DNA of 64,000 nt from a virus, in the IMG/VR virus record IMGVR_UViG_3300047322_000607, positions 4,620 to 68,619 of that record; one strand, 5' to 3'. The notes beneath the pieces were generated by a model, which worked only from the letters and a program-made list of their open reading frames with translations, ran no database searches and was not told the DNA's origin. Position 1 is the first letter of the stretch. Each line of letters starts with the position of its first letter. Positions 2,387 through 60,558 of the stretch are shown in pieces. A program made the translations under genes and the position numbers.

Positions 2387-4681
2387 ATGGTCCGCCGGGA
2401 ATTCGCGGGGCTGCCGGTCGTGGTCGAGAACCCGGCCGGCAGCATCCGCCAATGGCACGATCGCGACGGGCGCGAAAGCGGCTCGGTCGAGATGCGCCAC
2501 GACTATGGCTTCCTCGAGGGGCACACCGGCGCCGACGGCGAGGAGGTCGATTGCTACCTCGGGCCCGACGAGACCGCGAAATTCGCCCACGTTGTGCACC
2601 AGCTCGCCGCGCCGGACTTCAAGCGCTTTGACGAGGATAAGGTGATGCTCGGCTTCGCCGACGAGCAGAGCGCGAAAGCGGCCTATCTGGCGCACCGCAA
2701 CGACGGCGATCGGGCCTACGGCGGCATGAGCACGATCCCGCTCGAGGCCTTCACGAAGAAGCTTCGCCGGCGAACCGGCGAGGGCAAGATCCGACACGAG
2801 AGGGACCAACCCATGCCGACCCCGTCGCTCTTCCGGATCGAGCATCGCGGATCGAAGTGGGTCGTCCTTCCCGAGACCGGCGACCGGGTGCTCGGCGAGC
2901 ACGACACCGAAGAGGACGCGCAGAAGCAGCTCGCCGCGATCGAGGCCAGCAAGGCGAAGGCGGCGGAGCACGCCGCGGCTTTCGAGTGGGGCCCGACCGT
3001 TCTCTTCGAAGTCTCGCGCGGCTCGGATCAACGGGTGCGATCCGGCGTGTGGGATTTCCTTTGCGTCGAGGGCGCCGACTTCAAAGACAAGCAGTGGACG
3101 GAATTCTCGCCGGAGACCCTCGGCGAGATGATCCGCAACGCGGCGACGCGCGGCGACCCGATCCCCTACGACTGGAATCACCAGACCGCCTATAGCGCGA
3201 TGAACGGGAAGCCGGCGCCGGCGCTGGCCTACGCTGGCGCCTGGGCGTGCGTGTGGGATGGGAAGATCGTCGAGCAGGGAACGGCGCGGGGCGTCAAGGT
3301 CGCTTCGTATGAAGGGCTCGACCTCTCGCGCAACGGGCTGTGGATCTACCGGAGCGAAGTGACCGACGGGAGCGCCGACTACCCGCTCGGTCAGCAGCTG
3401 CTACCCGGCTACAAGCTGCTTTCGCCGATGTTCGTCCGCAACGGGACGGACCGCACCGGGAACCCGGTCGGCTACTCGCTGATCGCCATCGGCTGCACCA
3501 ACTCGCCCCACCAGGGCGGCACGGAATTGAACCTCGAGCGGGGGGGCGAGCCTCGCCCCGCTGCTGTACCTCCCCCAGCGATTTCACCGGCGCCGCGGGC
3601 GCCTTCACCCTCGACCACGGAGAACAAAATGAACCCGAAGATGCTCGCGGCTGCGAAGTTCGTCGGACTGGACGAGAAGGCGACCCCGGCCGAGATCCGG
3701 AAGGCCTTCAAGGCTCGCGCGGTGCAGGGCGCGATCCTGATGGACGTCGGCGCCTCGGCGATGGAAGCCGGCGACAGCGACGTGAAGCCCTTCGACTACG
3801 AGGGCATGGCGGCGAAGATGGAAGACGCGGCCAAGGTGTACGAGGACGCCCACTTCGAGCCGGACGCCGACGACAAGGGCGACGAGCACGTCAAGATGCG
3901 CGCCATGGCGGCGAAGTTCCGCCGCATGGCCAAGATGGCGGCCCCGGCGGTCAAGCCGGAGGGCGACGGCGAGATCGCTTCGATGGAAGCGGCGAAGGCC
4001 GACGAGAAGGCGACCAAGGAGATGGCCACCTTCGCCCGCTCGGTCGGGATCGACCCGGGCAACATGAGCCGCGCGCAGATGTTCGACGCGGTGCGCGCGA
4101 GTCACGTCCCGGTCGCGCGGATCCCGGAGCTCGTCGCCGAGACCGTGACCAAGCAGCTCGCCGCGGAGCGCGAGAAGGAGAGCGCGGCCGCGCGCAAGCA
4201 GGCCGGCGCGATCCTGATGTCGTCCGTCCGCAAGGACTACCCGGGCGACCGGGAAGCGCTGGCGCGCGAAGCGGAGCGCGACCCGGCCAACGCGGCGAAG
4301 CTCGCCGGCCCGTGGCTCGAGAAGACCGCCCCGGCGCACCTCTTCGAGCGCATGAGCTCGCAGGGCGGCGCGGTCGGCGGCGGCGAGGGCGGCAACGCCC
4401 GAAGCTTCGACCAGGTCCCGAAGATCCAGGTCCGCAAGACCCAGGCGGCGACCTTCATCGCGGCCGACGCCGCGATCGCCGACAAGGCGAAGGAGCTCGC
4501 GACCAGCAAGGATCCGGTGATCATGTCCCGGCTCGACGCGATGCTCCCCACCAAGAGCGATCGCACCAACCCGGCGATGCGCCTCCTGAAGGCGCAGCAG
4601 CTCGCCGCCGAGATGCACCCCGACCTCGCCGCGGCCGCCGAGGATGGCGAGCTCGCGATCTCCATGGGGCGCGGCATCTAG
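2387..4681 (+). CDS. InPase-domain / Mu gpI-like prohead protease / scaffold fusion
   Basis: N-terminal ENPAGSIR..HDYGFL..GADGEEVDCYLGP..FDEDKVMLGF (InPase-like). Central IPYDWNHQT..NGKPAPA (Mu I protease-like). Helical Ala/Lys/Glu-rich C-terminus with internal GGAG + ATG 3629. Lies upstream of the capsid genes. Confidence 0.8.
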   Translation: MVRREFAGLPVVVENPAGSIRQWHDRDGRESGSVEMRHDYGFLEGHTGADGEEVDCYLGPDETAKFAHVVHQLAAPDFKRFDEDKVMLGFADEQSAKAAYLAHRNDGDRAYGGMSTIPLEAFTKKLRRRTGEGKIRHERDQPMPTPSLFRIEHRGSKWVVLPETGDRVLGEHDTEEDAQKQLAAIEASKAKAAEHAAAFEWGPTVLFEVSRGSDQRVRSGVWDFLCVEGADFKDKQWTEFSPETLGEMIRNAATRGDPIPYDWNHQTAYSAMNGKPAPALAYAGAWACVWDGKIVEQGTARGVKVASYEGLDLSRNGLWIYRSEVTDGSADYPLGQQLLPGYKLLSPMFVRNGTDRTGNPVGYSLIAIGCTNSPHQGGTELNLERGGEPRPAAVPPPAISPAPRAPSPSTTENKMNPKMLAAAKFVGLDEKATPAEIRKAFKARAVQGAILMDVGASAMEAGDSDVKPFDYEGMAAKMEDAAKVYEDAHFEPDADDKGDEHVKMRAMAAKFRRMAKMAAPAVKPEGDGEIASMEAAKADEKATKEMATFARSVGIDPGNMSRAQMFDAVRASHVPVARIPELVAETVTKQLAAEREKESAAARKQAGAILMSSVRKDYPGDREALAREAERDPANAAKLAGPWLEKTAPAHLFERMSSQGGAVGGGEGGNARSFDQVPKIQVRKTQAATFIAADAAIADKAKELATSKDPVIMSRLDAMLPTKSDRTNPAMRLLKAQQLAAEMHPDLAAAAEDGELAISMGRGI

Positions 4682-57864: not shown

Positions 57865-58479
57865 ATGAAGAAGACGCCCCCGAAGAAGCCGAGCCGGGCG
57901 ACCGCGCCGCTCGTCGAGAAGATGGGGATCCGCCACGTCGCCGCCGACTACAAGCGGATGGACGGCCTCTTCGTCGCACCCGGCCGGATGGTCGCCTTCG
58001 ACGAGCCGCTCTTTCTCTTCCCGGGCCAGGAGATCTACGCCCCCCGGACGATCGAAGAGGGTCAATACGTCGTCCGGGTGGTGGTCGACGGCGTGCTGAC
58101 CCGCACGGTCCGCGCGCCGCTTCACCCGACCCCGGTCCCGATCGCCGCGCCGGCGCTTCAATCGGTCCCCCTCGAGCCGGCGCCCGAGGCCACCTTCGCC
58201 CCGCAGGCGCTCGAGGCGCCGCCGAGCTCGCCGCCTGTGCGCCTGGTGCGCGTGCAGCAGCCACCGAACGACCTCGCCGAGCGGCAAGCCTCGGGCGACC
58301 TCCTGCGCGCGCTGTGGGCGCTCCTGTGGCCGGTGCTCTGCTACTTCCGGCTGCACGCCTGGCGCACCTACCGGAAGGTGATGATCGACCCCAACCCGGG
58401 CGAGCTCGGTCCGTCGCAGCTGATCGCCGCGCGCCAGCGCTGCGCGCGCTGCAACAAGGAACGGTCGATCGTCCGATGA
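57865..58479 (+). CDS. Hypothetical protein
   Basis: AAGGAG RBS. Confidence 0.6.
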   Translation: MKKTPPKKPSRATAPLVEKMGIRHVAADYKRMDGLFVAPGRMVAFDEPLFLFPGQEIYAPRTIEEGQYVVRVVVDGVLTRTVRAPLHPTPVPIAAPALQSVPLEPAPEATFAPQALEAPPSSPPVRLVRVQQPPNDLAERQASGDLLRALWALLWPVLCYFRLHAWRTYRKVMIDPNPGELGPSQLIAARQRCARCNKERSIVR

Positions 58480-58775
58480 AGCTACCGGACCACTACCCCA
58501 CCAGCGGCGAATACCTGCTCGAGCCGCTCGAGGGGCCCGACGGCCGGCTCTACTCGATCATCCCCTTGACCTTCGGCCGGGCGCGGATCGTCGTGGGGCG
58601 CGACCGGCTCACCTATGACGACGGGTGGTGATACGAGCGCCCCGGCGTAGCGGTCGCTGCGCTCCAAGCCTGGGATCCGATGGTGGCGAAGGAACCGGAG
58701 GGATGGATCCGGCACCCGGAGACCGGCCGACGGCGCCCCGATGGCGATGCAACAAGGGAATACGTGAGCCGGTGA
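58476..58775 (+). CDS. Candidate selenoprotein (UGA read-through at codon 52)
   Basis: The frame continues past TGA 58629-31 (TYDDGW*YERP..EPEGWIRHPETGRRRPDGD) to TGA 58773-75, which overlaps the next GTG start. Confidence 0.7.
58632..58664 (+). promoter_or_regulatory. Bacterial SECIS-like hairpin
   Basis: GCGTAGC-GGTC-GCTGCGC, with the loop starting 20 nt after the UGA. Confidence 0.65.
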
Positions 58776-60558
58776 GGCTCGACGAGTACCTGCAGGTCCG
58801 CGAGGCCTTCGCCCGCGAGCAGGCGCTACGGCTTGCCGCCGAAGCGGTGCGCGGCGAGCTCCTGCAGAGCGTCGCGCGGATCAAACTGAAATGGGAGGCA
58901 GCCGAGCGGCGCGCCGACGACCACCCTAACGGCAGCTGGGGCGGTCTCTACGCGCAACGCGACGCCTGGCGCACCTTCGGCCTGCACTGGCGCGAGCAGG
59001 CCCGATGGTTGCGAATCGCGCTCGCCGCGGGCCCGCTGCTCGAATGGATGCACTGGAGAAAACCGAGATGAAAAAGGCCACCCTCTCCGACAAGGGGATC
59101 CGGACGCTCGCCGCGCTGGCGCTGGCGCCGATGCCACGGCAGGAGATCAATCCCGGCCTCGCGCGGAAGCTGCTGCTCGAGGCGCTCGCCGAGGAGATCG
59201 TGCTACCGAGCCCATACCGCACGGTCAAGGGCGACGTGCTCTATCTCCGGATCACCGGCGCCGGCCTCGCGCGCTTGCCGATCCCGGTCCCCCGCTTCAA
59301 GGATGATCGGATCGTCGCCACCCTATCGATGCGCCGGAGCGTTTGGAGCTCGATCGCCGACGGCGGCGATACCCACCTCACCGCCTGCGCGGCGGCGCAG
59401 TGCGTGATCGAAGGGCGCTCGCACTACGCGATCACGGCGGCCTTGTCGCCTGGTCGACAACCGGCCTTGCTGCGGCTGCTCGTCGAGGCGCGCGCCAACG
59501 TACAGGCCAGCATCGCCGACACCGGGATCAGCGACGACCAGCGGAGCCAACGAAGAAGCCTCTACGATCGCCTGCACGACACAATCGAACGCGCAAGGAA
59601 AGGCGGCCGCCGATGACCAAGCTCCCCCCGACCCTCTCGCTCGTCGCGGATAACGCCTTCGACAACTACACATCGCAGCGATCCCGCCCCCTCGAGGTGA
59701 TCGGCCTGGCGATCGCGCACCTCGACGAGAAGGTCGCGGCGATCACCATCCCGCGCAACATCTGGCGCGTGATCTCGCTTCACCCGACCGTGCTCCCCTA
59801 CCTCGCCACCTTGCGCGCCTCGGCACGGCGCCTCTCGTTCCGGCTCGGTCCGTTCCACTTCGAATGGAAGGGTCGGCAGAAGGAAGCGCGCGAGCTCCTC
59901 GACGAAGCGCTCGGGGTCGTCCCGGGAACGATCCGGATCATCGAGGAGGCGGCGAACGTGATCCTCTTCGAATCGAAGACCGGCGACATGGTCGCAGTCG
60001 ACAAGGTGCTGACCGAAGGCTTCGGCAAGTGAGCGACGAGATCGCCCGACGCCTGCTCGGCGCGGCGCCGGTCGGAGAGCAGGGAAGCTACGCCGGATCG
60101 GCCGTTCACCGAGAAGTGGCCCGCGCTCACCTCGCCGCGCACCTCGCGCGGGAGGACTGGGCGAAGTACCTCGAGCGCTTCGGCCTCGGCGTGCCGCGGG
60201 TCTACCCGATCAACCGGTCGCGCTATTGGACCGTGCACCGGATCGCCTGGCTCGGTCGCCGGCGAAACCGGCGGCGACGTCGGGCGGGCCAGTGACCGCG
60301 CGCCGCAGTGATCGCGGATCGCTGACCGCTGCGCACGCCGCGATCGCCGAGAGCTTGCGCGATCGAGCGCTTCGCCGGACCGAACAGCAGCCGGCGCTCG
60401 AGCCGACGCCGGTCGCGTGTCGCTGCTGCGGCGCGCCCCCGGTCGCCGGCGCGGTCTTTCACGACTGGTGCGACGATTGCCAGGCCTGCAACGCCGACGG
60501 CAGCGCCGGCGAGGACGTACCGCGATACGACGAGCATTGTCCCAATCGAAGGAGATAG
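58772..60558 (+). CDS. Five hypothetical genes (58772-59071, 59068-59616, 59613-60032, 60029-60295, 60292-60558)
   Basis: A 4-nt start/stop overlap at every junction. Confidence 0.55.

Follow-up and report, generated by a model that had tools for sequence, protein, structure and literature searches.

A candidate selenocysteine codon with a SECIS-like hairpin in a family of small bacteriophage genes

Described selenocysteine signals and the phage locus

Escherichia coli fdhF is among the closest described counterparts of the phage gene considered here. In strain MG1655, codon 140 of fdhF is a TGA, and directly 3' of it, inside the open reading frame (ORF), lies a hairpin with a GGUC apical loop, the first base of which is at offset 21, counted from the T of the TGA, with 18 nucleotides (nt) in between. 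The phage gene is located in a 64,000-nt stretch of viral DNA, referred to as the window throughout, that comprises positions 4,620 to 68,619 of the IMG/VR virus record IMGVR_UViG_3300047322_000607 (68.6 kb in total, with a completeness estimate of 76%). This gene also has an in-frame TGA, at 58629-31, which is likewise followed by an in-ORF hairpin with a GGUC apical loop, here at offset 23 (20 nt in between). The UGA is very probably a genuine SelB-dependent selenocysteine (Sec) codon, U52, of a 99-residue phage protein, and the locus appears, from the pattern of conservation among its relatives, to belong to an undescribed family of bacteriophage selenoproteins.

Along with the position and the loop of the hairpin, the two genes presumably share a dependence on SelB. 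However, they differ in several respects. The window protein is unrelated to the fdhF product: it is a phage protein of about 100 amino acids (aa), whereas fdhF encodes a molybdoenzyme of 715 aa. The stem conserved in the phage gene, at 6 bp, is the shorter and simpler of the two, its loop lies 2 nt farther from the UGA, and the gene is carried by a virus without Sec genes. An earlier note on this DNA, made from its letters alone, had stated a GGUC-containing loop at about 18 nt for fdhF, which the MG1655 sequence bears out.

Bacterial selenoprotein families predicted from genomes and metagenomes (bSECISearch, deep-Sep, BSepDB; 111 families and subfamilies) are defined by evidence of the type available for the window gene, in that an in-frame TGA is conserved, homologues have Cys in its place, and a stem-loop matches the consensus of the bacterial selenocysteine insertion sequence (bSECIS). 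Unlike those families, the window gene has no NCBIfam or Pfam match, and its product contains a single U without a CxxU-type partner. In the bSECIS consensus set out in a 2026 review of the prokaryotic selenoproteome (PMC13188914), the element has a loop of 3-9 nt, an upper stem of 4-16 bp, a UGA-loop spacing of 16-37 nt and a minimum free energy (MFE) of -7.5 kcal/mol or lower; the first or second loop base is a G, in most cases with G or U following it. A stem of 6-8 bp and a conserved loop G about 20 nt 3' of the UGA are specified by Itoh et al. (PMC4605307). The window element, with a GGUC loop, 8 bp, 20 nt of spacing and a local MFE of -13.5 kcal/mol, agrees with both descriptions, as determined with our own script, and the earlier note's proposal of a bacterial SECIS is upheld to that extent.

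Viral selenoproteins were met in the literature only in the form of poxvirus glutathione peroxidases, which are treated in the relevant portion of PMC8310308. The enzymes of molluscum contagiosum and fowlpox viruses are described there as wholly dependent on the host Sec machinery, as would be the case for the window protein, and the SECIS of fowlpox glutathione peroxidase is reported to sit in the coding region. Poxviruses differ in being eukaryotic viruses that use a eukaryotic SECIS and eukaryotic factors for captured cellular genes of known function. The window system, in contrast, combines a phage, a bacterial-type SECIS and a mostly viral protein family without assigned function. Genome-wide stop recoding in phages also results in in-frame stops in phage genes, which are then mis-split by gene callers. 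Here, however, one codon of one gene is concerned, together with a local RNA signal, and TGA still terminates the gene and its neighbours.

The mechanism itself is a known one. The in-ORF hairpin (6-8 bp stem, GGUC loop) would act as a bacterial-type SECIS; host SelB, with GTP and Sec-tRNA(Sec), would bind this hairpin and deliver Sec to the ribosome in competition with release factor 2 (RF2). The phage would contribute the mRNA signal only, with tRNA-Sec, SelA, SelB and SelD being supplied by the host. Recognition of the hairpin by SelB and insertion of selenium, as well as the part played by U52, are inferred from sequence. What is new is the phage setting, with the RNA signal alone on the virus, and the protein family.

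Conservation of the codon and covariation of the hairpin

The reading frame proposed in the earlier note, from an ATG through a TGA after ...TYDDGW to a terminal TGA, proved correct in all coordinates (Table 1), and was found to remain open for 47 codons past the internal TGA. Termination at the first TGA would leave 58632-58771 uncovered, which is the gap of about 140 nt pointed out in the note (140 nt exactly), and the two operon-like junctions named there, an ATGA overlap with the preceding ORF and a GTGA overlap with the next, are both present. The hairpin was also found as described, with arms GCGTAGC (58645-51) and GCTGCGC (58656-62) enclosing the GGTC loop. An extra G.U pair (58644/58663) closes it beyond these seven Watson-Crick or wobble pairs, and its conserved core consists of the inner 6 bp (58646-51 with 58656-61).

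The window locus alone has no significance. When both strands are counted, chance alone would produce 0.21 sites per window at which a TGA precedes a GGTC loop (offset 19-27) on a stem of 6 bp or more, and one was observed, at the candidate position only. The significance comes from the relatives of the locus.

Protein-seeded scans of DNA yielded 24 viral loci, two loci in bacterial metagenome-assembled genomes (MAGs) and six metagenome loci. With the window included and L024 left out, which holds the C-terminal 20 residues only, 32 loci were scorable. TGA was observed at the exact column in 14 of them: the window, 11 of the 25 loci from viruses and genomes that could be scored, and two of the six metagenome loci (besides the window, L001-4, L006, L009-12, L025, L026, L048 and L049). 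Among the 18 loci without TGA, 14 carry a Cys codon (TGC or TGT) at this column, and the other four have TAC, GAG, ACC and CAA. Neither TAA nor TAG was found there in any of the 32 loci, the GC content of which ranges from 0.44 to 0.74.

How closely is the hairpin tied to the codon? All six core pairs together with a GGTC loop at offset 23 were observed in 12 of the 14 TGA forms (11 of the first 12 TGA forms plus L049) and in none of the 18 non-TGA loci (Fisher p = 4e-7). The non-TGA loci reach a maximum of five of the six core pairs, and GGTC occurs among them in L005 alone, with 3/6 pairs. In an ungapped alignment of 12 TGA forms, 88.5% of the cells pair; the covariation of these 12 sequences was determined to be 0.521, compared with 0.223 for shuffled sequences, none of 500 shuffles reaching the observed value, and with at most 0.136 for slid controls. 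RNAalifold independently predicted the 6-bp core from the alignment of TGA forms.

A DNA-pattern scan of the viral collection (TGG-TGA-TWY, 15 free bases, GC-GGTC-GC) gave 46 matches, 39 of which were retained as family members by a filter applied to the translation downstream; five of these are on contigs already known and 34 are new. The seven matches left out were L077, which is cut by the contig end, L084 and L107, which resemble family members but have divergent or broken C-termini, and the unrelated L093, L094, L095 and L099. The 34 new loci, which are biased to the canonical form because the search pattern fixes TGG-TGA, the loop and two stem pairs, contain 31 distinct 60-nt segments (GC content 0.38-0.71), and the TGA form at this one column is present in at least 48 loci overall. 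The earlier note had proposed to check whether other genomes keep the TGA plus the hairpin, and many independent relatives were found to keep both.

Among 45 distinct TGA-form sequences, the covariation was 0.503, compared with 0.180 for shuffled sequences (again reached by 0/500) and at most 0.163 for slid controls. Pairs 34-41 and 35-40 and the loop are fixed by the search pattern and therefore carry no weight, whereas pairs 33-42 and 30-45 are free. Pair 33-42 takes all six pair types (AU 12, GC 9, UA 7, CG 6, UG 6, GU 2; unpaired 3). Pair 30-45 is similarly diverse in composition (GC 21, CG 12, UA 4, AU 2, GU 2, UG 1; unpaired 3), and pair 31-44 is mostly GC (GC 33, UG 8, three other types; unpaired 1). 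Because columns 30, 33, 42 and 45 are third-codon positions, synonymous changes have been kept complementary. The outermost pairs, 28-47 and 29-46, are poorly kept, so the conserved element is a 6-bp stem with a GGUC tetraloop.

A maximum-likelihood tree was computed from 25 sequences. One of its clades (support 92/96) unites the Tyr form L016 with 11 TGA forms; L026, a TGA form, pairs with L019 (Glu), with L005 (Cys) nearby, and the remaining Cys forms are in the sister clade. The end branches measure 0.3-1.8 changes per column of the protein alignment, which indicates that the TGA has been kept through deep divergence. L016, with a TAC (Tyr) codon at its position 2762 within the TGA clade, has a decayed hairpin (4/6 pairs, loop GATC), and looks like a case of loss of Sec along with loss of the SECIS constraint.

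The sequence downstream of the TGA is translated in the same frame, judging from its evolution. In a 22-codon block from GW.R, pairwise differences among the 14 TGA forms were 0.238, 0.14 and 0.607 at codon positions 1, 2 and 3, respectively, and 45-47 open codons follow the TGA in 14/14 TGA forms. The 3' half is under purifying selection in frame. Overall, the locus would qualify by every sequence-based criterion used to call bacterial selenoprotein genes, with unusually rich covariation.

A tight subgroup of TGA forms (...TDG..VDDGW*Y.DLLSAVAGFA...; L074, L079, L085, L097, L101, L103, L113 and L114, and also L077, L107 and L112) recurs on many short viral contigs and has a UCAGC/GCUGG stem with a U.G pair. 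In this subgroup, L107 is apparently broken after the GW.RH motif.

Host capacity and alternative readings of the codon

Two TGA forms, L025 and L026, were found on short contigs of the bacterial MAGs G001 and G002, respectively. G001 is a Thermomicrobiales-titled MAG of about 7 Mb, and its L025 is the closest relative of the window gene, with 62% identity. Matches above the cut-off were obtained in G001 for selB (315.8 bits, cut-off 242.25), selA (525.7 bits, cut-off 267.9), selD (372.3 bits, cut-off 125) and tRNA-Sec (70.1 bits, cut-off 47), the last being called tRNA-SeC(tca) by ARAGORN. The earlier note had expected selA, selB, selC and selD in the host, and this sole TGA-carrying bacterial genome large enough to judge has selA, selB, selD and tRNA-Sec. 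The selD gene (L060, G001:C80, locus 1531) contains one in-frame TGA with a GGUC hairpin loop at offset 35, and an Fdh-like gene (L059, G001:C410, locus 1921) contains one in-frame TGA with a GGUC(U) hairpin loop at offset 21; both look like unannotated host selenoprotein genes.

A selA match above the cut-off was obtained in 36 of the 41 sampled genomes of the order of G001 (35 of 39 without the unpublished G085, which was positive, and G066, which was negative) and in 15 of the 41 sampled genomes of the order of G002. Among cultured phages, carriers of the family were found only in nine records of Caulobacter jumbo phages. The one that was read, gp271c of phage BL47, carries Cys at the column, and no match to selA was obtained in a Caulobacter control genome.

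Could the UGA be read through without SelB? A near-cognate tRNA (Trp or Cys), aided by the hairpin, would then yield a mixture of 51-aa and 99-aa products without selenium. Such programmed read-through also predicts frame continuity, coding selection on the 3' half and a conserved hairpin, and the wider family tolerates many residues at the column. It is nevertheless unlikely, given that the stop is always TGA and never TAG or TAA, that the aligned residue is mostly Cys, and that the loop and spacing match the SelB-binding type present in the G001 genes, in E. coli fdhF and in published SECIS descriptions. Moreover, the base after the UGA is U in 14/14 TGA forms. A U after UGA provides a comparatively strong termination context.

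A true stop at the TGA is quite improbable as well. The product would be a 51-aa N-terminal protein, with the C-terminal half made by internal initiation or re-initiation, as in a split gene, or not made. Start codons do occur in the window between the TGA and the conserved C-terminal block, namely an in-frame ATG (58680) and a GTG that has a Shine-Dalgarno-like sequence, and some in-frame start codon is present there in nine of the 14 TGA forms. However, in five of the 14 the interval from the TGA to GW.R contains no ATG, GTG or TTG in frame, and the start positions otherwise differ, which makes an independent start for the 3' half unlikely. Furthermore, both halves are in one frame in 14/14 loci, they form one compact domain in the AlphaFold2 (AF2) model, with strand 49-53 running through the U position, and a true stop leaves the covarying GGUC hairpin unexplained.

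Reassignment of TGA throughout these phages, by an alternative code or a phage opal-suppressor tRNA, is highly improbable, although stop-codon reassignment is known in some phages and the 184-kb TGA-form record G010 has a large tRNA array. The same gene was observed to end in TGA in nine of 12 TGA forms examined, the 34 new loci have terminal TGA in 17 cases, TAA in 10 and TAG in seven, and the neighbouring ORFs of the window likewise end at TGA. No tRNA was found in the 64-kb window, neither tRNA-Sec above the cut-off nor selB was found in nine TGA-form virus records, and no UCA-anticodon tRNA was found in four scanned loci of G005 and G010. Only one TGA with the hairpin signature is present in the window.

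The array of G010, the record of a large phage of low GC content (0.49) that holds L011, is dense, with at least 16 tRNAs in L065, L067 and L068. It includes three tRNA-Ser and one tRNA-Cys, none with a UCA anticodon.

A nonsense mutation (pseudogene) or a sequencing or assembly error would take a single base change (TGC to TGA) and would likewise make gene callers return two fragments, but is effectively refuted by the conservation of this codon at this column in at least 48 loci on different contigs with branch lengths of 0.3-1.8, by the intact downstream frame under selection, and by contigs from four runs (X10, X11, X12 and X15; soil and rhizosphere), which cover 58629-31 with 0 differing letters. 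Absence of the TGA from reads or relatives was what the earlier note would have taken as refutation, and the TGA is present in the contigs of 4/4 runs. Run X12 covers the window from end to end and could be the sample it came from.

Assignment of the UGA as a Sec codon has several observations weighing against it. The window's virus record was found to contain no Sec genes, so the host must supply the Sec machinery. In G002, a Solirubrobacterales-titled MAG of about 2.8 Mb that carries L026, no selA, selB, selD or true tRNA-Sec was found, and its two Rfam matches just above the cut-off are tRNA-Ser by ARAGORN. This result either counts against the claim, or the bin is incomplete, or the 6-kb contig is mis-binned. 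Two of the 14 TGA forms are without the canonical hairpin: L012 has a variant with a 7-bp stem, a GUG loop and unchanged spacing, and L048 has only a weak alternative with a 3-bp upper stem. The bias of the 34 extra loci, noted above, belongs here too. The bSECIS criteria, applied by our own script, are passed by 13 of the 14 TGA forms, L048 failing because of its upper stem; in GC-rich DNA, 11 of 17 non-TGA forms pass these loose criteria too. Being so permissive, they were rejected as a discriminator and given little weight alone. The window hairpin was found to be not stabler than dinucleotide shuffles (z 0.99 and z 0.08), and single-sequence folding energy was dropped as evidence, the fold lying within the shuffle range. 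An Rfam cmscan of 58400-58900 at E values up to 10 gave no SECIS family, only a chance intron match of 14.7 bits. The remaining points concern the protein. The window protein is without any Cys and has no CxxU or UxxC motif, the context being W-U-Y-E. No known fold was found for it, so nothing independent points to redox chemistry. Finally, the UGA column varies family-wide, Cys accounting for just 62 of 151 database members and the others having mainly D, T, S, E or Q.

Protein family, genomic setting and implications

Five full-length database homologues of the read-through protein align directly across the stop, and Cys is found at the column among homologues, which agrees with the earlier note. 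A profile search gave 1,422 cluster representatives at E values up to 1e-3, and the family is large, unnamed and mostly viral. Its members are proteins of about 100 aa with the motifs D-D-x-W-[U/C]-Y, then A..A...W, then EP.GW.RH..[ST]GRRRP.GD...EY, the most conserved segment being the C-terminal tail EP.GW.RH..GRRRP.GD...EY. Neither for the window protein nor for its homologues was a match to a Pfam, PHROG or NCBIfam family obtained, and a sequence profile search of the PDB gave no match. One of 111 family members has a marginal HTH_62 match. The ESM Atlas neighbours of a natural Cys homologue, P0003, are unnamed clusters that are 71-86% viral.

The column aligned to the UGA is occupied in the 151 database members by C (62), D (23), T (17), S (13), E (11), Q (6) and others (19), and its flanking residues are conserved, with W, Y or F before it and Y or F after it. 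Since gene calling for these members assumed the standard code, no TGA form can be represented among them at full length. The statement in the earlier note that homologues have Cys at this position holds in that Cys is the commonest residue, both in these members and in the non-TGA loci (14 of 18), but Cys is not universal. Since the column is variable in the wider family, the residue is not an indispensable catalytic residue family-wide. In L021, L022 and L023, the conserved RRRPDGD...EY tail is missing, and GRR or NRR is followed instead by an acidic sequence that is longer and unrelated to it; these loci could represent a variant of the C-terminus or a subgroup with a frameshift.

In the AF2 model, computed from a 111-sequence alignment, the 99 residues form one confident domain, with a predicted local distance difference test (pLDDT) score of 89.8 and a predicted template modelling (pTM) score of 0.80. 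U52 is placed within strand 49-53, right before helix 56-65. A Foldseek search of the PDB gave a best E value of 0.66, the best match in BFVD was an uncharacterized Caudovirales protein (TMq 0.59), and a wide VIA-align search did not rise above noise (best Z 4.7). WGR-domain matches from VIA-align (Z 3.1-3.7) were not trusted. The fold searches listed no thioredoxin-like match, although such a fold could still be present. The suggestion in the earlier note that the protein is perhaps redox-active found no support: the window protein has neither a CxxU motif nor any Cys, the searches gave no known fold for it, and the column is not invariant in the wider family. U52 might, quite tentatively, be a single nucleophilic or metal-liganding selenol (or thiol) at the end of strand 3, before the helix. 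Such chemistry, if real, would be a feature of the U/C subfamilies only, in view of the variability of the column in the wider family.

The features of the locus are listed in Table 1. The two flanking ORFs with PHROG matches place the candidate gene in an early DNA-metabolism block on the + strand.

Table 1. Coordinates of the candidate gene, its signals and neighbouring ORFs in the window
Feature	Position	Strand	Remarks
ORF, 259 aa	57048-57827	+	phrog_14517 (E 1.4e-53), phrog_5429 'DNA repair protein' (E 7.2e-26); PDDEXK-type; no Pfam
Upstream ORF, 204 aa	57865..58479	+	Without family match; TGA 58477-79 overlaps ATG 58476-78 (ATGA)
Candidate selenoprotein gene	58476..58775	+	99 codons plus stop, read-through at codon 52
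Antisense 'shadow' ORF	58482-58715	-	Overlaps candidate gene
In-frame TGA, proposed Sec codon U52	58629..58631	+	TGG (Trp) before, TAC (Tyr) after
SECIS-like hairpin inside ORF	58644..58663	+	GGUC tetraloop 58652-55; loop start 20 nt after UGA
Downstream ORF, 99 aa	58772..59071	+	Without family match; GTG 58772-74 overlaps TGA 58773-75 (GTGA)
ORF, 340 aa	60565-61587	+	phrog_6247 annotated DNA topoisomerase (E 5.2e-70); no Pfam

No natural phage selenoprotein was found to be described in full-text literature searches. The main texts of the 2026 review and of the deep-Sep and BSepDB papers contain neither 'phage' nor 'virus', and their supplementary family tables, which lie outside this coverage, might list the family under another name. 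It is conceivable, though doubtful, that this is the first natural phage selenoprotein family, with a UGA and SECIS that gate an early phage gene by host and selenium, and with switching between U and C along with the host. If so, the 99-aa protein would be made only in Sec-decoding, selenium-supplied hosts, translation elsewhere stopping at 51 aa; lineages would exchange U for C (or another residue), or the reverse, when changing from hosts that use Sec to hosts that lack it or back, and the U/C state would be a readable host-range marker. Confirmation of the Sec codon itself, the far more probable claim, would mean that phages exploit the host Sec pathway with a mere 16-nt stem-loop, that dozens of public phage genes are now split or truncated by annotation, and that host selenium status may affect phage fitness. 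The hairpin would then also serve studies of SelB recognition, as a natural SECIS of very small size for which covariation data are plentiful. The function of the protein may be approached through its Cys-form homologue in cultured Caulobacter phages.

No flanking gene is shared across the 32 loci, and in the absence of conserved neighbours the genomic context gives no functional clue. The sole recurring flank 'family' consists of antisense shadow ORFs like the one that overlaps the candidate gene (Table 1), similar ones recurring in seven loci. These ORFs are most likely a by-product of high GC content plus a conserved sense frame, and not genes.

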